20,716 nucleotides of DNA. Source: a virus (lineage: Duplodnaviria > Heunggongvirae > Uroviricota > Caudoviricetes). Each line of letters opens with the position of its first letter. Position 1 is the stretch's first letter. Positions 1-18,292 of the stretch are shown piece by piece. The notes under the pieces are model-generated. The model saw only the letters and a list, made by a program, of their open reading frames with translations. It searched no databases and was not told where the DNA came from. A program made the position numbers and the translations under genes. The DNA lies in the IMG/VR virus record IMGVR_UViG_2541047849_000003, positions 1 to 20,716 of that record. One strand, written 5' to 3'.

Positions 1-1284
1 TTACTTCTTCGCCTCTGCAACCACTTTACTACCCACGCCGCGGTTATTGTATTCCCACATGCGGTTGTAGTTAGTGTCATTCAGATTGCGCTGTATTTCG
101 TCGTTATCATCTACGCTGCCGGTATTACCCGCAAACGGACGATTAGAGATCACCGCATCGGCCCACGGTTTAGCCGTGTTAAAACCTTCGTTGATGGCGC
201 TATCACGGATCACCACCTGACCGTTGGTATTGGCATCAACATCCAGCGAGCGGCCCAGTTGCGCCACACCATCACCGAAAGCATTGAAACGGCTGTTTAC
301 GGCGAGGAAACCGTAGTAAATGTTGGACAGCGTAGCCGGTGCAAACACATACGCTTCTTGCTGAGTACGTGAGTTCACCACGCGGAATTCGGTGTTATCG
401 AACACCACTGCGCCGCGACCAGAAACGATATCCACATCCCCTTCAATGTAGCTGTTGGTCACCAGCGTACGCGGCTGACGATTCGTTTCCAGACGGTTCT
501 GCACACCGCTGTTGGTGACAAAGAAGGTGTTCTGACGACCGAGAATGTTAACGTTGTTAATCTGTACCTGGTCACCATCAGTACGCAGTGCCACCGCCGG
601 ATGGTTACCTGCATCTACGCTATCGCCCAGCGTGTTTTCGATGGTCAGATTTTGCAGTTGCAGGCCATTGTTTTGTGACCAGAAGACCGCAGAGCAGAGA
701 ACACCGATACTGTCGCTGCGTTTGCTCTGGCAGCTATCGTACATATACCACGCTGGTTTACCTGGCATATATTTGCCGCGCGGGTTGACGTCGTGACGCC
801 AGTCGGCAGGGCTCATGCCACCATCAAGGGAAAGCCCAATCTTCACATCAATCGGTTTTTCACCTGTACCGTACAGAGTAATTCCACCCGGAGCGGCAGG
901 GACATATACCGTTCCCTGATACTCACCAGGCATCACGGCAATATACTGGCGCTTGTTGGTACGCTTGATAATTGCCGCATCTACCGCCGCCTGAATCGTG
1001 GTATGCGTTACACCTTGAGTGCCCGCCGGGCCGACAACAAATTCAGGTTGCGCAGGCAGGGTAATCGGGGAAGGATTCCACGCTGCAGCACCTGGTGTCA
1101 GGGATGCAAAATAGTGTTGAGCATCGAAATTCTGCGCTTCTTTTGCCGACAGAATCGGGCGAGAAGAGGTACCAGGCGCGGTTTGATCAGAAGGACGTTG
1201 ATCGGGCGGGGTTGAGCTACAGGCGGTCAGCGTCACGCCAAAAGCCAATGCCAGCGCCAGACGGGAAACTGAAAATGTGTTCAC
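1..1284 (-). CDS. ybhC: Host outer-membrane lipoprotein YbhC (pectinesterase-fold, putative acyl-CoA thioesterase)
   Basis: Complete 427-aa ORF with stop at 1-3. N-terminus MNTFSVSRLALALAFGVTLTAC has a signal peptide and LTAC lipobox. ybhC is the known gal-side neighbour of the lambda attB site. Confidence 0.85.
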   Translation of the reverse strand: MNTFSVSRLALALAFGVTLTACSSTPPDQRPSDQTAPGTSSRPILSAKEAQNFDAQHYFASLTPGAAAWNPSPITLPAQPEFVVGPAGTQGVTHTTIQAAVDAAIIKRTNKRQYIAVMPGEYQGTVYVPAAPGGITLYGTGEKPIDVKIGLSLDGGMSPADWRHDVNPRGKYMPGKPAWYMYDSCQSKRSDSIGVLCSAVFWSQNNGLQLQNLTIENTLGDSVDAGNHPAVALRTDGDQVQINNVNILGRQNTFFVTNSGVQNRLETNRQPRTLVTNSYIEGDVDIVSGRGAVVFDNTEFRVVNSRTQQEAYVFAPATLSNIYYGFLAVNSRFNAFGDGVAQLGRSLDVDANTNGQVVIRDSAINEGFNTAKPWADAVISNRPFAGNTGSVDDNDEIQRNLNDTNYNRMWEYNNRGVGSKVVAEAKK

Positions 1285-1330
1285 AGGTTGCTCCGGGCTA
1301 TGAAATAGAAAAATGAATCCGTTGAAGCCT

Positions 1331-1345
1331 GCTTTTTTATACTAA
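1331..1345. other. attL: Prophage attL core (lambda-type 15-bp common core GCTTTTTTATACTAA) with lambda P-prime arm to about 1420
   Basis: The core GCTTTTTTATACTAA is present, preceded by bacterial B-arm sequence (GTTGAAGCCT) and followed by P-prime arm sequence (GCATTATAAAAAAGCATTGCTTATCAATTTGTTGCAACGAACAGGTCACTATCAGTCAAAATAAAATCATT) carrying Int arm-type site motifs. Recognised from memory of lambda attP. Confidence 0.85.
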
Positions 1346-1418
1346 GTAGGCATTATAAAAAAGCATTGCTTATCAATTTGTTGCAACGAACAGGTCACTA
1401 TCAGTCAAAATAAAATCA

Positions 1419-2489
1419 TTATTTGATTTCAATTTTGTCCCACTCCCTGCCTCTGTCATCACGATACTGTGATGCCATGGTGTCCGACTTATGCCCGAGA
1501 AGATGTTGAGCAAACTTATCGCTTATCTGCTTCTCATAGAGTCTTGCAGACAAACTGCGCAACTCGTGAAAGGTAGGCGGATCCCCTTCGAAGGAAAGAC
1601 CTGATGCTTTTCGTGCGCGCATAAAATACCTTGATACTGTGCCGGATGAAAGCGGTTCACGACGAGTAGATGCAATTATGGTTTCTCCGCCAAGAATCTC
1701 TTTGCATTTATCAAGTGTTTCCTTCATTGATATTCCGAGAGCATCAACATGCAATGTTGTAGGGATGGCAATTTTTACGCCTGTTTTGCTTTGCTCGACG
1801 TAAAGATATCCATCTACGATATCAGACCACTTCATTTCGCATAAATCACCAACTCGCTGCCCGGTAACAACAGCCAGTTCCATTGCAAGTCTTAACCAAC
1901 ATGGTGATGATTCTGCTGCTTGATAAATTTTCAGGTATTCGTCAGCCGTAAGTCTTGATCTCCTTACCTCTGATTTTGCTGCGCGAGTGGCAGCGACAGG
2001 GTTTGTTGTTATATGGCCTTCAGCTATTGCCTCTCGGAATGCATCGCTCAGTGTTGATCTGATTAACTTGGCTGACGCAGCCTTGCCCTCGTCTATGTAT
2101 CCATTGAGCATTGCCGCAATTTCTTTTGTGGTGATGTCTTCAAGTGGAGCATCAGGCAGACCCCTCCTTATTGCTTTAATTTTGCTCATGTAATTTATGA
2201 GTGTCTTCTGCTTGATTCCTCTGCTGGCGAGGATTTTTTCGTAGCGATCAAGCCATGAATGTAACGTAACAGAATTATCACTGTTGATTCTCGCTGTCAG
2301 AGGCTTGTGTTTGTGTCCTGAAAATAACTCAATGTTGGCCTGTATAGCTTCAGTGATTGCTATCCTCCTGTCTCGGCCTAATCCAAACTCTTTACCCGTC
2401 CTTGGGTCCCTGTAGCAGTAATATCCATTGTTTCTTATATAAAGGTTAGGGGGTAAATCCCGGCGCTCATGACTTCGCCTTCTTCCCAT
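1419..2489 (-). CDS. int: Site-specific tyrosine integrase, lambda Int-like
   Basis: 356-aa ORF beginning MGRRRSHERRDLPPNLYIRNNGYYCYRDPRTGKEFGLGRDRR and ending ...HLLGHKSDTMASQYRDDRGREWDKIEIK, matching lambda Int as I recall it. Sits beside attL and overlaps xis as in lambda. Confidence 0.96.
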   Translation of the reverse strand: MGRRRSHERRDLPPNLYIRNNGYYCYRDPRTGKEFGLGRDRRIAITEAIQANIELFSGHKHKPLTARINSDNSVTLHSWLDRYEKILASRGIKQKTLINYMSKIKAIRRGLPDAPLEDITTKEIAAMLNGYIDEGKAASAKLIRSTLSDAFREAIAEGHITTNPVAATRAAKSEVRRSRLTADEYLKIYQAAESSPCWLRLAMELAVVTGQRVGDLCEMKWSDIVDGYLYVEQSKTGVKIAIPTTLHVDALGISMKETLDKCKEILGGETIIASTRREPLSSGTVSRYFMRARKASGLSFEGDPPTFHELRSLSARLYEKQISDKFAQHLLGHKSDTMASQYRDDRGREWDKIEIK

Positions 2490-2685
2490 TTCTGATCCTC
2501 TTCAAAAGGCTACCTGTTACTGGTCGATTTAAGTCAACCTTTACCGCTGATTCGTGGAACAGATACTCTCTTCCATCCTTAACCGGAGGAGGGAATATCC
2601 TGCATTCGCGCACCCATCGACGAACTGTTTCAAGGCTTCTTGGGCGTCGCTGGCGAGCGTTCCACTCCTGAAGTGTCAAGTACAT
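2467..2685 (-). CDS. xis: Excisionase, lambda Xis-like
   Basis: 72-aa ORF MYLTLQEWNARQRRPRSLETVRRWVRECRIFPPPVKDGREYLFHESAVKVDLNRPVTGSLLKRIRNGKKAKS. Its 3' end overlaps the int start by 23 nt, the lambda arrangement. Confidence 0.95.
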   Translation of the reverse strand: MYLTLQEWNARQRRPRSLETVRRWVRECRIFPPPVKDGREYLFHESAVKVDLNRPVTGSLLKRIRNGKKAKS

Positions 2686-2775
2686 CGCAAAGTCTCCGCA
2701 ATTACACGCAAGAAAAAACCGCCATCAGGCGGCTTGGTGTTCTTTCAGTTCTTCAATTCGAATATTGGTTACGTC

Positions 2776-3075
2776 TTATTCGATGCGCACTCCTGGTATT
2801 TCGCCTTTTGATATTGCGAAGTCATAAATTTGCGCAGCACTATACCCATCTCGCATCCATGAATCTAATGCGCGAATAGCCTCGCTACGCTTTTTATCTT
2901 CTCTCTCATTTTTGATATCAACGAGGACATCAACGCAATTAAGGCATATGTGGATTTTGTCCTTACATTCGATCATGGCGGCTTTACCATGATTTCCGCC
3001 ACACAGTGAGCATAAATCTTCAGGGTCTTGCTGGTATTTCTGTAACGTTAGAGGGTTTAATGTTGAACAGACCAT
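2776..3075 (-). CDS. Hypothetical small cysteine-rich protein (CxxC...CxxC, zinc-ribbon-like), early-left ea-region position
   Basis: ORF open to 3087. Three in-frame ATGs at the 5' end; the third (3073-3075) has GGAG 8 nt upstream. Same strand as int and xis. Contains CSLCGG and CLNC motifs. Confidence 0.5.
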   Translation of the reverse strand: MVCSTLNPLTLQKYQQDPEDLCSLCGGNHGKAAMIECKDKIHICLNCVDVLVDIKNEREDKKRSEAIRALDSWMRDGYSAAQIYDFAISKGEIPGVRIE

Positions 3076-3146
3076 AATCATCTCCATAAAACAAAATTCG
3101 CCGTAGCAAGTTCAGATAAAAGAAATCCCCGCGAGTGCGAGGATTG

Positions 3147-3323
3147 TTATTCAGTGCCGATATTTACCTTTATCGCGAACACCTTTACCGGTTTATCACC
3201 GAAGTGGGGATGTGTGATTGTCTTGATTTCATATCCGTTATACGGGACGTCAATTCTGCGACTTAAGTCTTCGCGCTTCGGATATCCCTTTGTGATAATC
3301 AGGCGGTCATACTCGCGGAACAT
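3147..3323 (-). CDS. Hypothetical 58-aa protein (MFREYDRLIITKGYPKREDLSRRIDVPYNGYEIKTITHPHFGDKPVKVFAIKVNIGTE)
   Basis: ATG-initiated ORF found by manual translation; it is below the length cutoff of the supplied track. Same orientation as int and xis. No convincing Shine-Dalgarno sequence. Confidence 0.25.
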   Translation of the reverse strand: MFREYDRLIITKGYPKREDLSRRIDVPYNGYEIKTITHPHFGDKPVKVFAIKVNIGTE

Positions 3324-3495
3324 AATTCGCTTATCGTAGAGAACAGAATTGGCATTATTCCAGCGCCAGAAAATGGATTATGGAAGGCAGCGCATAGAAA
3401 AGTTGGCAGTGATAGTACCCCATATCATATGACTCAAGATGAAAACCCACTCCGCGCTGCCATGATTGTCTTTCTCATGATGCAGGACGCCAATA

Positions 3496-3672
3496 ATGCT
3501 TAGCCCATCCCAATCCATTCAATACCAGAAAGAAAGCGTCGAGCGGGCTTTAACGTGCGCTAACTGCGGTCAGAAGCTGCATGTGCTGGAAGTTCACGTG
3601 TGCTCAGATTGCTGCGCAGAACTGATGAGCGATCCGAATAGCTCAATGTACGAGGAAGAAGACGATGAATGA
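3496..3672 (+). CDS. Hypothetical 58-aa cysteine-rich protein (CANCGQ...CSDCC), translationally coupled to the downstream Rha gene
   Basis: ATG at 3496; its stop TGA (3670-3672) overlaps the ATG of the next gene in an ATGAATGA arrangement. Putative metal-binding Cys cluster. Confidence 0.45.
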   Translation: MLSPSQSIQYQKESVERALTCANCGQKLHVLEVHVCSDCCAELMSDPNSSMYEEEDDE

Positions 3673-4282
3673 GTTAATAAATGGCAATGCCATCAAAATG
3701 ACAAGCATTGAAATCGCTGAGTTGGTTGGTAAGCGTCATGACAATGTGAAACGTACCATCGAAACGCTGGCTAAAAATGGTGTTATCCGGCTTCCTCAAA
3801 TTGAGGATTGTGTAAGAATCAATGGGTTAGGCTTAAATCAAAGTTTTTGTGTGTATGTATTCGAAGGCGAACAAGGAAAGCGAGACAGTATTGTCGTTGT
3901 AGCCCAGTTGTCGCCGGAATTCACCGCTCGTCTTGTTGACCGTTGGCGAGAGCTTGAAGAAACTGCGGTTAATATCCCCAAAACGCTACCAGAAGCGTTG
4001 CGCCTTGCTGCTGATCTTGCTGAGCAGAAAATGCAACTGGAAAACCAGCTCGCAATTGCCGCACCTAAAGTTGAGTTTGCCGATCGAGTTGGCGAGGCCA
4101 GCGGAATTTTGATTGGAAACTTTGCAAAGGTTGTCGGTATTGGTCCAAACAAACTGTTTGCGTGGATGCGTGATCACAAAATCCTTATTGCTTCAGGTTC
4201 CCGGCGAAATGTGCCAATGCAGGAATATATGGATCGCGGCTATTTCACAGTGAAAGAAACAGCGGTCAACCAGCGAAGATAG
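3665..4282 (+). CDS. Rha-family phage regulatory protein with KilA-C/ANT-type C-terminal domain, apparently 3'-truncated
   Basis: N-terminus has the Rha hallmark IAELVGKRHDNVKRTIETL. The C-terminal region (KLFAWMRDHKILIASGSRRNVPMQEYMDRGYFTVKE) resembles the KilA-C antirepressor domain but stops about 25-30 residues earlier than such domains normally do. AGGAAG ribosome-binding site upstream. Confidence 0.7.
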   Translation: MNELINGNAIKMTSIEIAELVGKRHDNVKRTIETLAKNGVIRLPQIEDCVRINGLGLNQSFCVYVFEGEQGKRDSIVVVAQLSPEFTARLVDRWRELEETAVNIPKTLPEALRLAADLAEQKMQLENQLAIAAPKVEFADRVGEASGILIGNFAKVVGIGPNKLFAWMRDHKILIASGSRRNVPMQEYMDRGYFTVKETAVNQRR

Positions 4283-4352
4283 CGCAGAGCATGGACTGGT
4301 AAAACACCTGCGCAAGACGATTAAAGAGAAAGACCGCGAGCTGAAAGAGCTG

Positions 4353-4955
4353 ATGCGTCAGTCTCAGAAACCCGTCGAGCAGCAGCCGGTAATCACTCAA
4401 CCACCGCGAATGCCAAAACTGGATGATGAGGACATCGGTTTCGATGAAGAAATCTATCAGCAACGCATGGCTAAGTGGGCAGAGGATAACGGAAAGTACC
4501 AGCAACAGGAGATGGCTCGCAAGCAGAAGGAGCAGGAGCTTCATGCTGCTTATCAAGAGCGATTATCCAAATATCAGCAACGTGTTAAGGCTCTCAAGGT
4601 TCCTGGCTATCAGGAAGCAGAACAGGCCGTACTCGAGGAAATCCCCATCGAGACACAAAACGCGATCCTGTTTGAGTCAGAGAAGCCGGAAATCGTTGTT
4701 CTGGCGCTCGGTCGCAACGCTGAACTGCGCAAGCAACTGGCAGAAGCTACCAACCCCGTAGCAATTGGTCGTCTGCTGGAACGTATCGAATCGAAGGCCA
4801 GAATCATGCCAAAAGCAAAAACCACGGCAGCCACAACCCCGACAGTTAAGGGGAGCAACGGCGCAGTAATCAATAACCTCGACAAACTGAAAGCCAAGGC
4901 GCTGGAAACTGGTGACTGGACGCCGTATTTCGCCGCTAAAAAGGCAAAAAAATAA
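4353..4955 (+). CDS. P22-like scaffolding protein, N-terminally truncated remnant (reading frame open from 4254)
   Basis: C-terminal region (LGRNAELRKQLAEATNPVAIGRLLERIESK...KLKAKALETGDW) resembles the coat-binding C-terminus of P22 gp8. Lies immediately upstream of the coat gene. Scaffold-like sequence continues in frame upstream of the first ATG back to 4254, with no start codon there. Confidence 0.6.
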   Translation: MRQSQKPVEQQPVITQPPRMPKLDDEDIGFDEEIYQQRMAKWAEDNGKYQQQEMARKQKEQELHAAYQERLSKYQQRVKALKVPGYQEAEQAVLEEIPIETQNAILFESEKPEIVVLALGRNAELRKQLAEATNPVAIGRLLERIESKARIMPKAKTTAATTPTVKGSNGAVINNLDKLKAKALETGDWTPYFAAKKAKK

Positions 4956-4973
4956 CCTATCGGAGCATTAAGC

Positions 4974-6227
4974 ATGGCTAACCAATTAGCAAAAGACCTT
5001 GAAATCATGTTCGAAAACTACGTTGAAGGCTTTGAGGCCGCCTGCGTAGTTTCCCGTAACGCTAAAAAATTCCGTCCCGGTGATACCGCAATGCAGCGAG
5101 CAGGTGATGTTCTGTATCGTCCGCAGCATTACCACATGAACATTGAAGAAGGCCTCGATCTCAGCGGCAAAACGCCTACAGCACTGGTTCAGCGCCTTGT
5201 TCCTTCTGTGTTCAAGGAGCCGAAAAACATTCTGTACACTCTGGATGCGCGTGAAATGCGTGACCCGGAACATAAAACTGAAGCTGGTCGCGCCGCAGGT
5301 ATGCGCCTTGCTGCACAGATTGACTCTGACCTGATTTCCATGGTCACGCAGCGTGCTACTAACGTGATCACAATGGCTGACTCAACAACTGGTTCACAGG
5401 GCCGTGATTTGTGGAACTGTGCGGCAGGTATTGATGCCACCATGACGGCGATTGGTGTACCTCAGGGTATCAACCGTCGCTCTTTCTGGAACCCCTTCAA
5501 CTACAAAGACCTTGCTGGCGAGCTTGGTCACCGTGCCTATGCTCAGGGCGCAACCCTGACAGCATACGAAAAAGCGCAGATCCCTCCGGTTGCGTCCTTC
5601 GATAGCTACAAGACCGATATTTCTGGTCGTGTTCCGAAGGGTACAGCAACTTCCATTACGCTGGCAGCAGCACCTGCGCACAAGGTTGAAGCGAAAGATG
5701 CTAACGATATGCCAGTGGATAACCGACAGGGGACCATTACGGTATCTGCATCTGGTTTGCAGGTTGGCGATGCGTTTACCATCGCAGGGGTGAATTCCGT
5801 ACACCAGATCACCAAAGATACCACCGGGCAGCCGCAGGTATTCCGCGTTCTGGCAGTTAGCGGAACGACAGTAACTATCTCCCCGAAAATTCTGCCGCCT
5901 GACAACGCGGATGTCGCCAGCCGTCCATATGCAAACGTTGATGCTAATGCGGCAAGTAGCGCAGCAATCACCATTCTCAACAAAAATGCCGCACCGGCTA
6001 ACCTGTTCTGGGCTGATGGTTCTGTTGAACTGATGTACGGCAAACTGGCGTTCCCGACTGGTCAGGGTCCACAGGTAATGACAGCAACCACCGAGCAGGG
6101 CGCTACGCTGATCATGTCTTACGCCTTCGACCACATCAAAGGCGTAACCACTGCGCGTTTCACCACTCTGTACGGTTGCTCTGTACTGGTTCCTGAATAT
6201 ACGGGCATCGTTATTGCCGGGCAGTAA
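4974..6227 (+). CDS. Major capsid (coat) protein, P22 gp5-like
   Basis: 417-aa ORF with GGAG ribosome-binding site. Overall architecture and the C-terminal FWADGSVEL motif resemble P22 coat protein. Followed by a strong terminator. Confidence 0.85.
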   Translation: MANQLAKDLEIMFENYVEGFEAACVVSRNAKKFRPGDTAMQRAGDVLYRPQHYHMNIEEGLDLSGKTPTALVQRLVPSVFKEPKNILYTLDAREMRDPEHKTEAGRAAGMRLAAQIDSDLISMVTQRATNVITMADSTTGSQGRDLWNCAAGIDATMTAIGVPQGINRRSFWNPFNYKDLAGELGHRAYAQGATLTAYEKAQIPPVASFDSYKTDISGRVPKGTATSITLAAAPAHKVEAKDANDMPVDNRQGTITVSASGLQVGDAFTIAGVNSVHQITKDTTGQPQVFRVLAVSGTTVTISPKILPPDNADVASRPYANVDANAASSAAITILNKNAAPANLFWADGSVELMYGKLAFPTGQGPQVMTATTEQGATLIMSYAFDHIKGVTTARFTTLYGCSVLVPEYTGIVIAGQ

Positions 6228-6234
6228 TTTAGGT

Positions 6235-6256
6235 GGGGCTTCGGCCCCATTTTTAT
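6235..6256 (+). terminator. Rho-independent terminator after the coat gene
   Basis: GGGGC-TTCG-GCCCC hairpin with a GNRA-like tetraloop, followed by ATTTTTATT. Confidence 0.6.
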
Positions 6257-6268
6257 TGGGAGAAGACA

Positions 6269-6457
6269 ATGGCACGAACAATGCTCTATAAGCCGGGCAA
6301 CATGATCACCTGTGGTCAGTTTGCTGTCGATTACATCATTGTTGATGACGAAGAAGTTAAATCTCACCTGAAAAAAGGCTGGGTAAAAACTCCTGAAGAA
6401 ACCGCAACGAAGCAAAAAGTGGCTAAGGCGGAAGAAGATGGCGAAAACGAAGGGTGA
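6269..6457 (+). CDS. Hypothetical small protein between coat and gp4-like genes
   Basis: ATG at 6269 preceded by GGGAGAAG. 62 aa; overlaps the next gene start by 20 nt. Confidence 0.45.
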   Translation: MARTMLYKPGNMITCGQFAVDYIIVDDEEVKSHLKKGWVKTPEETATKQKVAKAEEDGENEG

Positions 6458-6899
6458 TCTCGTTCTTAAGGCTTTACGAAAAGCCGGGCTGTATTCCAAT
6501 GCCACGTTGACAGATGCTGACCCTCAGGCAATTGAAGATGCCATTAATGACCTCGAAGACATGATGGCAGCATGGCAGGCTAAAGGTATCGAGCTTGGAT
6601 ATCAGTTTGCTGATACAGAAAACGGCATCATGCCGTTACCTGACGATGATTCAGGTATCCCTGCATGGGCAAATGATGGCGTCGCTTTGAAACTCGCTGT
6701 GCAAGTGTGCATGGATAACGTCATTCAGCCGTCAGACGCTCTCCTTACCGCTGCTGACAGTGCATATCAAACAATCTGTATCGCTTTAACCAAAATACCA
6801 CCACTTGAGCGACGAAATGACATGCCTCGCGGGGCGGGGTTAAAAAGCGCGTTTACGTGGAATCGGTTTTACATCGAGAAAGATGATCCGAGTACGTGA
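6438..6899 (+). CDS. Head completion / tail accessory protein, P22 gp4-like
   Basis: 153 aa. N-terminus KTKGDLV..ALRKAG...ATLTD and the LEDMMAAWQ motif resemble P22 gp4. Gene order after coat matches P22. Confidence 0.8.
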   Translation: MAKTKGDLVLKALRKAGLYSNATLTDADPQAIEDAINDLEDMMAAWQAKGIELGYQFADTENGIMPLPDDDSGIPAWANDGVALKLAVQVCMDNVIQPSDALLTAADSAYQTICIALTKIPPLERRNDMPRGAGLKSAFTWNRFYIEKDDPST

Positions 6900-6908
6900 G
6901 GTGAATAA

Positions 6909-13788: not shown

Positions 13789-14781
13789 ATGACTGAAAAG
13801 AAAAGTGGCGAAGGGAAAGCTAAGGGCGGTATCGCTCGCGCAAAGTCGCTGACTAAAGAGCAGCGTTCTGAAATAGCAAAGAAAGCAGCGGCTGCAAGAT
13901 GGAAGGATAAACCATTAATTGCTACGCATAAGGGATCGTTCCAGCATGAATTCGGGATTGATGTTGAGTGCTATGTGTTAAATGATGATAACAAAACTGC
14001 CGTTATTAGCCAGAGAGGCATGGGAGAAGCGATTGGTCTTGGCGAAGGTGGCAGCAGGTTGCCAAAGTTTATTCAGGGGAAAACTATTTCTCAGTATATC
14101 GGGCATGAATTAAGGGCAAAACTTGAAAATCCTCTTATTTTTCAATACAAACAGGCGGGCACGAACACTCCAGCTAATCCTGTAATACATGGCTACGATG
14201 TAACAATATTAATTGATTTATGTCGAGCAATCTCTAATGCTAAAGCCGAAGGTAAGTTGCTTTCCAGTCAGGAAGGGATTGCTAAGCAAGCCAGAATCAT
14301 TATTGATGCATCAGCCAAGGCGGGCATTCAGGGGCTTGTTTATGCTTTGGCAGGGTATGACAGAACAAAAGAAGAGGTAATTCAAGCATATAAGCGATAT
14401 GTTGCTGAAGAGGCTCGTGAGTATGAAAGAGAGTTCACCCCTGAACTTTATGAGCATTGGTATCGTCTGTATGGTATAGACAAACCAGTTAGAGGGCGAC
14501 CATGGGCGTTTAAATATCTTACGATAGATCACATTTATTACCCATTAGCCAGAAGTGAAGGAAAGGTATTTAATTTAGCAAAAACGTCAAAAGAAGAAAA
14601 AGGCAGCAAAAACGATAAAATACACCAGTTTTTATCAGAGGTTGGAGTTAAGGCTCTTAGAACCCAAATAGGTAAGGTTACTGGTATTGCAATGGTTTCT
14701 GATACTCGAGAAGAGTATGAGAAATACATAGATGAAAAGGTTATTGGACAAAGAACCATAGACTTAAAAGATAAAGAATAA
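13789..14781 (+). CDS. Hypothetical accessory protein, probably P63C-domain family (phage regulatory or antirepressor-associated domain of unknown function)
   Basis: 330 aa. Basic N-terminal tail GGIARAKSLTKEQRSEIAKKAAAARW, then ...ECYVLNDDNKTAVISQRGMGEAIGLGEGGSRLPKF..., which matches my memory of the conserved P63C core. AT-rich codon usage unlike the flanking structural genes. Own promoter upstream and terminator downstream. Confidence 0.6.
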   Translation: MTEKKSGEGKAKGGIARAKSLTKEQRSEIAKKAAAARWKDKPLIATHKGSFQHEFGIDVECYVLNDDNKTAVISQRGMGEAIGLGEGGSRLPKFIQGKTISQYIGHELRAKLENPLIFQYKQAGTNTPANPVIHGYDVTILIDLCRAISNAKAEGKLLSSQEGIAKQARIIIDASAKAGIQGLVYALAGYDRTKEEVIQAYKRYVAEEAREYEREFTPELYEHWYRLYGIDKPVRGRPWAFKYLTIDHIYYPLARSEGKVFNLAKTSKEEKGSKNDKIHQFLSEVGVKALRTQIGKVTGIAMVSDTREEYEKYIDEKVIGQRTIDLKDKE

Positions 14782-14809: not shown

Positions 14810-15183
14810 ATAAGGAGTAATCATGATTTACCCATCAAACAACCCACCAGTTTGCCTGATTGGATGCCAGCCTTGCAGTTTTTATGGAATTAATTATGCC
14901 ATGCTCAAGAGCCTTGTTAGCATCCAAAATGGTCGAGTCTGCTATCAGGGATGCCCACCTAATATGGGTTCCGATGTCGATATTGAACGTCTCAACGAAG
15001 CGATCAAGATCGTTATCGAGGCATTTCCCGTACTCTCTCAATCTGGCATGGTCGGCGGCTGGGGAGGCAAAGCACCATAATAGAGGATGTAACAGGAATC
15101 TTGATAATGGGTTTGCGAAACGTTCTGAGCCAGCCAGGAAAACGATATTAGCTATGGATTCAACATTGCTTATGTTGTGAGTT

Positions 15184-15187
15184 CTAA
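15184..15187. repeat. IS5 target-site duplication CTAA, left copy (right copy at 16383-16386)
   Basis: Identical 4-bp CTAA immediately flanks both inverted-repeat ends of the IS element. IS5 is known to duplicate a YTAR tetramer. Confidence 0.8.
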
Positions 15188-16382
<1,195 letters not shown>

Positions 16383-16569
16383 CTAACGGTAACAGGGAGT
16401 GACTTAAGAAAGTTATACGCAGTAAAGCCAGCGGCAGTTTCCCCTCCCTGACTTGATATATGGATATTTAATTCAGTTGCGCCTTGAGATAATGCGGTGA
16501 GACAGTGGTTCTGAAGTTGCCCAACAGTGGCAGTGTTAACGGGGCATAAGAAATGAATTGTGTGCAGCA

Positions 16570-16818
16570 TTATTTTTCATCCTTACCATACATGGTCTTT
16601 AGCGTCTCAAGCAGCGCCTCTTTGAATTTGTCAGCTTCTTGCTGAGCAAATGACTCAACTGACTTTGGCGACCTATCTTCATCAATCGCGGCTTGCAAAA
16701 TCATGACGATCTCGGAGTTAACAGAGCGACCATTTTTTGATGCTCTGACAGCAAGAGCCTCGCGTAAAGATTCAGGGATTCTTACCGTAGTTGGAGAAAT
16801 TGACACACCCTTTGCCAT
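16570..16818 (-). CDS. mnt: Ribbon-helix-helix repressor, P22 Mnt-like
   Basis: 82 aa against 83 in P22 Mnt. Contains the RHH signature NGRSVNSEI. Transcribed divergently from the arc-like gene. AAAGGTG ribosome-binding site. Confidence 0.8.
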   Translation of the reverse strand: MAKGVSISPTTVRIPESLREALAVRASKNGRSVNSEIVMILQAAIDEDRSPKSVESFAQQEADKFKEALLETLKTMYGKDEK

Positions 16819-16932
16819 ATCACACCTTTGGTATTCAATTTGATATCAAAGTGTATGCAAAAAAATTTTGACTAGATATACTCACTTTGCTATCTTTTGT
16901 ATTCGAAAAGAGTTGTTTGTGTGGAGGGTAAC
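16819..16932. promoter_or_regulatory. Divergent mnt / arc-ant promoter-operator region with a 12-bp perfect palindrome TTTGATATCAAA (16839-16850) and a candidate rightward promoter (TTGACT 16867-16872, TATCTT 16890-16895)
   Basis: Intergenic region between divergently transcribed RHH repressor genes. The perfect palindrome is a plausible RHH-dimer operator. The -35/-10 pair has 17-bp spacing. Confidence 0.45.
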
Positions 16933-17085
16933 ATGGAGAAAGAAATAAGTAAGATTTTGGTAAGGATGCCGCAGTCGTTAAAGGATGCTATAGGTAGCAG
17001 GGCAAAGGAAGAGTGCAGGTCGTTTAACTCAGAGGTTATCAAGCGCCTGATAGACAGCTTGAAGAGAGAGGGGGTAATGGTATGA
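16933..17085 (+). CDS. arc: Ribbon-helix-helix repressor, P22 Arc-like
   Basis: 50 aa from the ATG at 16933 (GGAGG upstream); the supplied track extends the frame to 16897. The RMPQSLKDAIGSRAKEECRSFNSEVIKRL region matches the Arc/Mnt RHH fold pattern (P22 Arc: NLRWPREVLDLVRKVAEENGRSVNSEIYQRV). Confidence 0.75.
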   Translation: MEKEISKILVRMPQSLKDAIGSRAKEECRSFNSEVIKRLIDSLKREGVMV

Positions 17086-17285
17086 GTAAAGAATGTTGTT
17101 TCTGCGGCATTAGCGAATCAGACGCTGATCAAACATACATTTACTCTAAAGAAACAGGTCGGATGCTGTGTAGTGACTGCGTGTTGGACATCATAAGATA
17201 CAAGCATCTTGGATGTTCTGCCAGCATTAGCAATATAGGTGAAGTATATGAAGGGAAAGATATAACTGATAGAGCAGAAAGTTGA
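17082..17285 (+). CDS. Hypothetical Cys4 zinc-ribbon-like small protein inserted between arc and ant
   Basis: 67 aa with CCFCG and CSDC motifs. ATG overlaps the arc-like stop (ATGA). P22 has no ORF at this position, as far as I recall. Confidence 0.45.
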
Positions 17286-17347
17286 AGCCCCAACTGCGGG
17301 AACAGTCAGGGCTTCGGTTGTCAGTAAATCCGTGGAGAAAAACCAAC

Positions 17348-18250
17348 ATGAATAGTATAGCAATTTTAGAAGCAGTGAACACCTCTTACGTACCATTCAA
17401 CGGTCAGCAAATTATCACCGCCATGGCTGCCGGAGTTGCATATGTTGCGATGAAGCCAATCGTTGAAAACCTTGGAATGAGCTGGTCAACGCAGCAAACA
17501 AAACTCATGAAGCAGATTAGCAAATTCAACTGTGTTCATATGAACATGGTTGCCGCTGATGGGAAGCTTCGTAAGCTACTCTGCCTTCCTTTGAAGAAGT
17601 TAAATGGATGGCTGTTCAGCATCAACCCTGAGAAAGTTCGTGCTGACATCCGCGATAAACTGATTCAGTACCAGGAAGAATGCTTTACTGTGCTGCATGA
17701 CTACTGGACAAAGGGAAAGGCAGAAAATGCACGTAAGAAAACATCTGTTGATGACAGGACTCCGCTTCGTGATGCTGTAAATATGCTGGTCAGCAAAAAG
17801 CATCTAATGTACCCAGAAGCTTATGCAATGATTCATCAGCGTTTCAATGTGGAAAGTATTGAAGAGCTTGATGCGTCTCAGATACCGCAAGCCGTAGAGT
17901 ACATCCACAGGGTAGTGCTTGAAGGCGAATTCATCGGCAAACAAGAGAAGAAAACCAACGAGCTTTCTGCAAAAGAAGCAAACAGCCTTGTATGGCTATG
18001 GGATTATGCCAACCGCTCACAGGCATTATTCCGCGAACTGTATCCGGCGCTGAAACAAATTCAATCGAACTATTCCGGCAGATGTCATGACTGCGGTTAT
18101 GAGTTCTCCCGTATTATCGATATAGCGAGAGACGTTTTAATCAATCACTCACGAGATGTTGATATCAATGAGCCAGACGGACCAACGAATCTTTCCGCAT
18201 GGATGAGACTTAAGAATAAAGAATTACCTCCTTCAGTACATAACTACTGA
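17348..18250 (+). CDS. ant: Antirepressor, P22 Ant-like
   Basis: 300 aa from the ATG at 17348 (GGAG upstream); the supplied track's upstream start at 17282 is a TTG. Sits after mnt and arc and before the tailspike, as in P22 immI. N-terminus [21 protein letters not shown]. Confidence 0.8.
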
Positions 18251-18269
18251 CAGATAACCAACGCAACGA

Positions 18270-18292
18270 CCCAGCTTCGGCTGGGTTTTTTT
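18270..18292 (+). terminator. Rho-independent terminator after ant
   Basis: CCCAGC-TTCG-GCTGGG hairpin followed by TTTTTTT. Confidence 0.7.

Follow-up and report, generated by a model that had tools for sequence, protein, structure and literature searches.

Phage P22's immI region, the "ant moron" (mnt, Pant, arc, sar, and ant), is highly variable, with "ten types in sixteen genomes" (Villafane et al. 2008, PMC2629481). A P22-like Escherichia coli prophage remnant, IMG/VR virus record IMGVR_UViG_2541047849_000003 (positions 1 to 20,716, analyzed at full length and referred to as the window), contains an open reading frame (ORF) of 67 amino acids, ORF67, between arc and ant, which raises the questions of whether ORF67 is a gene, how its position compares with that in related phages, and what its product might do. 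ORF67 is a real, exchangeable accessory gene of the arc-ant (Pant) operon, with observed synteny to its relatives, a conserved four-cysteine (Cys4) core and a pattern of cassette exchange around it. The best overall explanation, with a probability of roughly 40%, is that ORF67 is an accessory finger resembling the N-terminal, substrate-recognizing domain (N-domain) of the host unfoldase ClpX that would act as a transient decoy.

17082..17285, plus strand: ORF67, accessory gene, 67 amino acids (ATG at 17082, TGA at 17283-17285; protein MSKECCFCG...CSDC)

An accessory gene that overlaps arc and sar

The ORF was found exactly where the original prediction had placed it, between arc and ant and with the CCFCG and CSDC motifs, and the translational coupling that had been claimed is supported by the overlap of the ORF67 ATG with the TGA of arc (ATGA at 17082-17085). 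The TGA of ORF67 lies at the foot of the sar terminator hairpin, 2 nucleotides (nt) into the hairpin and within conserved junction sequence, and the last two codons are overlapped by the sar RNA. A chance ORF of 67 amino acids is not rare, and it is conservation that lifts ORF67 above chance. The protein matches phrog_7150, a phage family of unassigned function, over its entire length (E 3.4e-50 and 169 bits, with residues 1-67 aligned to positions 1-67 of a 67-position profile). Phage CUS-3 (L002, CP000711) encodes an identical 67-amino-acid protein, unannotated, within a feature labelled "bsq2; boundary sequence", and the exact ORF67 sequence is present on at least 1000 contigs, always labelled "hypothetical protein", which is also its UniRef name. 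Among complete E. coli genomes, 373 out of 5426 carry the ORF67 DNA. The 374 records consist of 61 at ≥99% identity and 313 at 95-99%; nearly every sampled row of the latter band is a 96.7%-identical allele, and the sampled records include O157:H7 strains. The Prokaryotic Genome Annotation Pipeline (PGAP) left ORF67 unannotated in the genomes inspected. No match to ORF67 was found in NCBIfam or among the models of PADLOC, which cover defence and not anti-defence.

The immI module and its comparison with P22 and CUS-3

The elements that surround ORF67 are as follows.

16570..16818, minus strand: mnt-like repressor gene, 82 amino acids, divergent from the arc operon (Pfam Arc 41.8 bits, FitA-like ribbon-helix-helix 34.4 bits)
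16868..16896, plus strand: Pant-like sigma-70 promoter, TTGACT-17-TATCTT with an upstream TG (consensus scan; a match is not proof of function)
16933..17085, plus strand: arc, 50 amino acids counted from its ATG at 16933 (46.1 bits and E 4.4e-12 with Pfam Arc)
17280..17347, minus strand: sar antisense RNA, complementary to the ant ribosome-binding region (Rfam RF00262, 95.6 bits with a gathering score of 43, E 9.9e-20, full length 1-68)
17284..17315, both strands: conserved hairpin GAAGCCCC...GGGCTTC, the sar terminator on the minus strand and the ant mRNA leader hairpin on the plus strand
17348..18250, plus strand: ant antirepressor gene, 300 amino acids (Pfam P22_AR_N 153.6 bits, P22_AR_C 96.5 bits; phrog_245 "anti-repressor Ant" E 5.5e-94)
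18268..18287, plus strand: hairpin resembling an intrinsic terminator, located after ant and probably closing the Pant operon (consensus scan)

The divergent mnt-like and arc genes, the Pant-like promoter, sar, and ant follow the order and orientation of P22, whose five immI elements are all shared with the window, whereas a gene between arc and sar is present only in the window. The site at 16868-16896 is the only promoter-like site upstream of arc on the plus strand in the consensus scan. Homologues of the mnt-like gene in Salmonella loci carry a precomputed Pfam match to Repressor_Mnt, and in E. coli 10035776-3 PGAP labels the same 153-nt arc gene "Arc family DNA-binding protein". The hairpin at 17284-17315 is invariant in the alignments, lies within the Rfam sar match and has an RNA fold z of -2.78. 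A P22-type tailspike gene follows the hairpin at 18268-18287. The original prediction was correct about the short, gene-free spacer between arc and ant of P22: in P22 (L004) arc (1041-1202) and ant (1271-2173) are separated by 68 nt with no ORF between them, and the window becomes similar to P22 only from about window position 17278 on, just before the stop codon of ORF67.

A previous study, in which the inner cargo slot analyzed below is not described, reported CUS-3 as apparently lacking arc (Villafane et al. 2008, PMC2629481). In CUS-3 an unannotated arc-like ORF (L002 2378-2584) is located immediately before ORF67 (both within 2378-2784), and a fused Logan protein that joins the CUS-3 version of arc to ORF67 (P0001) carries a precomputed Pfam Arc match. 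The arc-like ORF means that the published view of CUS-3 as a phage without arc needs correcting.

A cassette slot between arc and the sar terminator

As judged by comparison of the loci, the interval from the 3' end of arc to the sar terminator is a recurrent cassette slot that is either empty or holds one of at least nine alternative small genes. The slot is bounded by the 3' end of arc (...AAGAGAGAGGGGG..(A/G)TGA) on one side and by the sar terminator on the other. All cargo ORFs have their start within the (A/G)TGA overlap with arc, and for most of them the end lies in the conserved ...AAAGTTGA at the 3' end of sar. These conserved starts and ends indicate that the two boundaries act as recombination joints and leave the regulatory geometry intact. 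Near-identical DNA is shared by the window, phiv205-1, and EC.P3 from mnt to the last arc codons and again from the sar terminator on, with unrelated ORFs of 67 amino acids (window) and of 57 and 89 amino acids (phiv205-1 and EC.P3) between the conserved segments. The Mnt, Arc, and ClpP-like proteins of the loci L064 and L039 are the same as those of the window, but the slot of these loci contains ORFs of 60 and 63 amino acids (ORF60 and ORF63), respectively. Five different cargo ORFs were identified on one arc/mnt backbone, which is shared by the window, L064, and L039 at the protein level and by phiv205-1 and EC.P3 at the DNA level.

The slot was surveyed with the sar terminator as an anchor; at least 120 IMG/VR loci were fetched and 108 contigs were classified. 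IMG/VR is redundant, and the following counts are proportions among the loci listed and not frequencies.

P22 arrangement (arc ends at the terminator or 6 nt before it): 54 of 108 contigs
Cargo in the slot, total: 48 of 108
Slot content unclear: 6 of 108
ORF67, intact: 15 of 108
ORF67, frameshifted: 4 of 108
57-amino-acid ORF: 8, plus 3 deletion derivatives, of 108
73-amino-acid ORF: 6 of 108
89-amino-acid ORF (membrane helix and coiled coil): 5 of 108
80-amino-acid ORF: 2 of 108
74-amino-acid ORF (ORF74): 2 of 108
ORF60: 2 of 108
ORF63: 1 of 108

Five cargo types are CxxC...CxxC fingers, and one of them, ORF60, qualifies in Pfam as a genuine ClpX C4 zinc finger. The description of ORF67 as an inserted ORF in the original prediction was right in spirit, but its position is a recurrent slot with many alternative cargo genes, and the comparison of arc-ant regions across P22-like phages suggested there reveals ORF67 in a part of the contigs listed while half of them display the P22 arrangement. 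Like a moron, ORF67 is present in some and absent from other close phages at the same position; no promoter or terminator of its own was found on either side of it by consensus scan, and the gene represents operon-embedded cargo rather than a classical moron. ORF67 was found together with three different Ant N-terminal types.

An antisense ORF of 92 amino acids (17118-17396, minus strand) spans ORF67, sar, and the start of ant, and stop-free antisense runs of 43-92 amino acids cross the slot in all cargo types though no sequence is common to them; these runs were taken as a by-product of sense-strand coding.

Whatever the function of the individual genes, the classic P22 immI operon holds a defined cassette slot for at least nine exchangeable small genes, and genes in this slot are missed by annotation pipelines, as the treatment of ORF67 by PGAP illustrates. 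ORF67 is already known as a hypothetical protein and PHROG member, and the surrounding region as a variable moron; in the literature searched, ORF67 as a divergent stand-alone ClpX-type finger, the defined slot and the series of ClpX-like fingers within it appear to be undescribed.

Examples of other cargo are located at L001 3023-3196 (57 amino acids) and L003 3023-3292 (89 amino acids) and in L040, L053, and others. The 73- and 80-amino-acid cargo ORFs have weak FlbD-like Pfam matches (E 0.025 and 1.7e-4, respectively) that remain below the threshold. In the chromosomes of E. coli 10671 and an O145 strain (L006 and L007, 2500-4200) the entire mnt-arc-ORF67-ant cassette is located inside lambdoid prophages, where it follows tail genes, among them that of the minor tail protein L, and precedes a C40 peptidase gene. 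The cassette of E. coli 10671 lies upstream of nleL and its arc is truncated.

Syntenic homologues and the conserved Cys4 core

ORF63 (L039; E. coli and Shigella) and an ORF of 68 amino acids, ORF68 (P0014 and P0019; Salmonella P22-like prophages, indexed in 536 blocks of the sequence collection), form a true family with ORF67. Both are found in exactly this slot and, like ORF67, overlap arc by 4 nt at their start, and the three proteins are 34-41% identical (pairwise BLASTP E 4e-13 to 8e-15). Residues C5, C6, F7, C8, G9, S22, K23, T25, C30, C33, and I37 are invariant in all three proteins, which share the core MxxxCCFCG...SKxT...C..C...I and differ in their tails and host range. Within the 41-residue core the nucleotide identity is 45-54% and most differences are at third codon positions; the conservation of the Cys4 core despite this divergence is the decisive evidence that ORF67 is coding. 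The (A/G)TGA start overlap is kept across divergent arc alleles as well. The concern attached to the original prediction, that the ORF might be absent from all relatives and lack codon-level conservation, is answered by the CUS-3 copy and by syntenic homologues that diverge at third positions.

A tblastn search of GenBank phages with ORF68 gave no match. When 1.84 billion representatives were searched exhaustively with HMMER, most matches were false positives (long proteins with Ig or TPR repeats that were matched in many stretches), and P0014 was the sole true remote homologue.

Similarity to the ClpX N-domain

Residues 1-40 of ORF67 fairly probably form a C4 zinc finger of the ClpX N-domain type, followed by a variable, acidic tail (residues 41-67) that is modelled with low confidence and is probably disordered. 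The putative zinc-ligand cysteines of the finger are C5-x2-C8 and C30-x2-C33, a CxxC...CxxC arrangement in which a predicted helix begins at the second pair. In the AlphaFold2 model a knuckle is followed by a hairpin (19-21/28-30) and by a helix (31-39) that starts at the second CxxC, a topology that predicts a treble-clef finger. The earlier label "Cys4 zinc-ribbon-like" therefore holds for the four cysteines but not for the fold, which is a predicted treble clef with the ClpX N-terminal zinc-binding domain as the closest family, rather than a classical ribbon. The likeness to ClpX consists of the four-Cys motif CxxCG...CxxC(V/I) and the predicted knuckle, hairpin, and helix. In contrast to ClpX, ORF67 is a stand-alone protein without an AAA+ ATPase, a 27-residue acidic tail takes the place of the ClpX linker, and the two Cys pairs are separated by 21 residues compared with 18 in E. 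coli ClpX.

ORF67 can be linked to the ClpX N-domain with moderate confidence based on a profile-profile alignment and a shared PHROG family. A single hhalign comparison of the ORF67/ORF68/ORF63 profile with a ClpX N-domain profile gave a probability of 86.5% (E 4.6e-6) from very shallow alignments, with both CxxC pairs matched and a 3-residue gap; of the ClpX N-termini in that profile, which include those of Bacillus subtilis and Mycobacterium tuberculosis, the E. coli sequence was the one checked with Pfam (77.7 bits). In the same register, phrog_5259 is matched by ORF67 (E 6.7e-5), ORF63 (E 1.3e-3), ORF68 (E 1.4e-2), ORF60 (E 1e-7), and the E. coli ClpX N-domain (E 5.5e-7).

The cargo of the same slot in other prophages points to the same domain. 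ORF60 reaches 43 bits with Pfam zf-C4_ClpX (PF06689 / PS51902, gathering threshold 27 bits), and its identity to the E. coli ClpX N-domain is 49%. This Pfam family is also the only or best match, below the threshold, for ORF68 (10-13 bits), ORF63 (12 bits), and ORF74 (18.9 bits), and ORF68 is listed in UniRef as "ClpX-type ZB domain-containing protein". ORF60 (P0020, e.g., WP_032246860; Enterobacteriaceae prophages) is a stand-alone protein of 60 amino acids that NCBI names "ClpX C4-type zinc finger protein". It resembles ORF67 in its slot, its arc/mnt/ClpP-like backbone (L064), its similar size and the same start overlap with arc, whereas it differs from ORF67 in passing the Pfam threshold, and the pairwise match between the two proteins reaches only E 1e-3. 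A word-indexed protein search with ORF60 returned only its own cluster.

Several observations weigh against a ClpX-like ORF67 under selection for such a function. ORF67 itself has no Pfam ClpX match at E ≤ 1 and does not reach the gathering threshold. In a search of 10,558 ORFs with a hidden Markov model of the family, ORF60 was the first non-family sequence but only at E 0.06, and ClpX N-domains scored at E 2-8 with the same model, which is noise. Searches of PDB sequences with ORF67 and with the family profile did not return ClpX, and searches by fold gave no informative match. Unrelated cargo genes share the slot, indicating that a ClpX-like function is not required by it, and in the literature searched on phage ClpX-type fingers and on arc-ant genes nothing specific to the function of ORF67 was found. 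There is furthermore no sign of purifying selection at shallow depth, which hints at weak constraint. Two ORF68 alleles differ by 17 changes (2.5 synonymous and 14.5 nonsynonymous), a ratio of nonsynonymous to synonymous rates (dN/dS) of ~1.2 that is uninformative with so few changes, and the differences among the ORF67 DNA alleles amount to one synonymous change and three single amino acid variants. Variants of ORF67 with a C5Y substitution occur, and both examined copies of the 96.7% allele (E. coli 10671 and an O145 strain) carry a +1 frameshift in the first CxxC.

Other zinc-finger families were considered and set aside. The PDB sequence search matched RING fingers (RNF4 and RNF31) only at chance level. 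Zinc fingers of the Mu Com or P2 Ogr type were dropped as candidates, as no Pfam or PHROG similarity pointed to them.

Further small Cys-rich proteins are encoded in the window and in other phages. A second ClpX-finger-like protein of 103 amino acids (2776-3087, minus strand; ...CSLCGG...ICLNCVDVLVD...) is encoded next to xis and matches phrog_3680 (E 5e-67), a family that is also matched by ORF60 (E 1e-3) and the E. coli ClpX N-domain (E 0.03). A Cys4 ORF of 58 amino acids (3496-3672, plus strand; CANCG...CSDCC) with an acidic C-terminus is located immediately upstream of, and overlaps, a Rha/KilAC gene. A tblastn search with ORF60 identified ClpX-finger-like stretches in the unrelated phages P88 (KP063541, 10372-10512, annotated as "carboxylate-amine ligase"), PhiR44_2, Bacillus phage G (gp258), and Staphylococcus phages. 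Stand-alone ClpX-type fingers may be widespread in phages.

Expression and possible function of ORF67

No promoter- or terminator-like site was found by consensus scan between the Pant-like promoter (16868-16896) and the terminator (18268-18287), and co-transcription of ORF67 with arc and ant is therefore likely. Co-expression with Arc from the ant promoter, as had been predicted, is likely in view of this result and of the coupled start. Transcription of arc and ant proceeds from Pant, which is autorepressed by Arc, and also from Plate; Pant is repressed by Mnt in lysogens and fires briefly after infection until it is shut off by Arc, with late-promoter read-through in addition (PMC12111858, PMC2629481). 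ORF67 would be translated by coupling to arc, be made together with Arc and Ant in the short Pant burst after infection and again by read-through of the late operon, and be absent from the stable Mnt-repressed lysogen. Expression on infection and late, but not in the lysogen, would fit a role for the infecting phage and not the protection of the lysogen. We infer this timing, as we do the binding of zinc by the finger.

The N-domain of ClpX self-dimerizes, recognizes the adaptors SspB and RssB and substrates such as MuA and FtsZ, and is dispensable for ssrA tags (PMC5415555). A free module that resembles this domain and lacks the ATPase would be expected to bind N-domain partners, that is, adaptor tails and N-domain-dependent substrates. 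ORF67 might in this way transiently divert or block the N-domain branch of ClpXP proteolysis, favoring the incoming phage while Ant is deployed. By analogy with ClpX such a decoy mechanism is conceivable, although taken by itself it is unlikely. Phage proteins that act on host proteases are known, with T4 PinA and T7 Gp4.5 acting against Lon and lambda RexB against ClpP-dependent degradation. They resemble the role proposed for ORF67 in that a small early phage protein interferes with host proteolysis, but they have no known sequence relationship to ORF67 and are not known to be domain mimics of the protease.

A broader version of the decoy reading extends it to the whole slot, which would contain free mimics of the ClpX N-domain (ORF60, ORF63, ORF67, ORF68, and ORF74) as an allelic series diversifying in an arms race; this version is distinctly unlikely. 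Equally unlikely is its corollary that the series is deployed with the antirepressor against adaptor- or N-domain-dependent ClpXP proteolysis of, for example, antitoxins, replication initiators, or repressor fragments. If true, the series would represent a previously undescribed class of phage domain-mimic inhibitors of a host AAA+ protease. If ORF67 does mimic the ClpX N-domain, it would offer a simple natural tool, and represent a new phage strategy, for shutting down a single branch of the substrate selection by ClpXP just as an antirepressor is released, with a bearing on prophage induction warfare, on abortive infection by toxin-antitoxin systems, and on the control of lysis and lysogeny.

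The original prediction had suggested an extra regulator or an anti-defence factor, and both readings are less probable than the main explanation. The most probable alternative is that ORF67 serves host takeover or anti-defence through a target that has no connection with ClpX, the finger being only a compact scaffold and the tail or the finger surface binding a protein of the host or of a rival prophage during the early Pant burst. This is a rather unlikely explanation that draws on the character of the slot as a hot spot for small, fast-changing, and unrelated accessory genes, on the tail as the most variable part of ORF67 and on the sub-threshold ClpX assignment of ORF67 itself. The predicted expression on infection and not in the lysogen would likewise be that of an anti-defence gene. 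However, the finger type is common to five cargo types, among them a near-canonical ClpX N-domain, which suggests that the finger itself is the functional part; the lack of a PADLOC match also counts against a takeover factor, within the coverage of that resource noted above.

ORF67 could alternatively be an additional immI regulator that binds Ant, Arc, Mnt, or the duplex of ant mRNA and sar and tunes the output of the antirepressor. Its location inside the operon, coupled to arc and ending inside the hairpin complementary to sar, is consistent with such a role, and small nucleic-acid-binding zinc fingers are known from phages (Mu Com, which binds the mom mRNA, and P2 Ogr). Yet P22 and half of the sar-bearing contigs listed have no gene at this position, unrelated cargo occurs on the same arc/mnt/sar backbone, ORF67 pairs with the three Ant N-terminal types, and neither Pfam nor the PHROGs show a similarity to Com or Ogr, all of which makes a dedicated regulator improbable.

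The dN/dS of ~1 at shallow depth, the C5Y variants, the frameshifts in the examined O157/O145-type allele copies and the lack of PGAP annotation in the genomes inspected could together indicate that ORF67, though translated, has no function, or that it is cargo in decay carried along between the two recombination-prone boundaries. This explanation is highly improbable given that the Cys4 core and approximately ten other positions survive at a nucleotide identity of ~50% in three lineages and that every lineage retains the overlap of the ORF start with arc. The copies with a frameshift, moreover, reside in generally decaying prophages, and in E. coli 10671 arc is also broken. A function of ORF67 as a partner or specificity factor of the phage ClpP-like protease encoded downstream of mnt is scarcely credible and was rejected, since the suggestive proximity of a ClpX-type finger to a ClpP-type protease is a nonspecific co-occurrence (16 loci with and 19 without the protease gene for finger cargo, 9 with and 11 without for other cargo), CUS-3 and the O157/O145-type copies carry ORF67 without the protease gene, and ORF67 contains neither an AAA+ module nor an IGF-type ClpP-docking loop.

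The ClpP-like gene and the remainder of the prophage

The region downstream of mnt contains a ClpP-like gene that is interrupted by an insertion sequence.

~14835-16570, minus strand: ClpP-family gene, 178 amino acids, overlapping the end of mnt, split by IS5
15188-16382: IS5, with terminal inverted repeats GGAAGGTGCGAATAAG / CTTGTTCGCACCTTCC and the transposase ORF at 15334-16314 (minus strand)

The 5' part of the ClpP-like gene is located at 16355-16570 (minus strand) and the rest lies below 15187 on the minus strand. The gene is also found downstream of mnt in L005, L008-L012, L014, L039, L064, phiv205-1, and EC.P3, and is intact at L005 1975-2511, L039 7627-8163, and L064 1113-1649. Its match to the NCBIfam ClpP-related head maturation protease is weak (48 bits with a cut-off of 120), and P22-like phages are not known to use a prohead protease. 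Among the loci listed, the ClpP-like gene is more common where the slot holds cargo (25 out of 45) than in the other loci (9 out of 57), without being specific to finger cargo.

The prophage appears to be defective (window 1-6900), as judged from its gene content. The window starts with a host gene (ybhC by match in related genomes) and a lambda-type integrase gene (1419-2489, minus strand), followed by a predicted xis (2467-2685, minus strand) that was identified by eye. A Rha/KilAC antirepressor-like gene (3665-4282) is directly followed by the scaffolding gene and then the coat gene; the scaffolding gene (4353-4955) lacks the first ~84 codons (phrog_648 positions 85-285), and the early region, the terminase, and the portal are missing from the prophage in the window. 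An ORF of 330 amino acids (13789-14781, plus strand) in the ant moron, flanked by the gene 16 homologue and the ClpP-like gene, encodes a P63C domain (Pfam 35.9 bits; phrog_2384, function unassigned).

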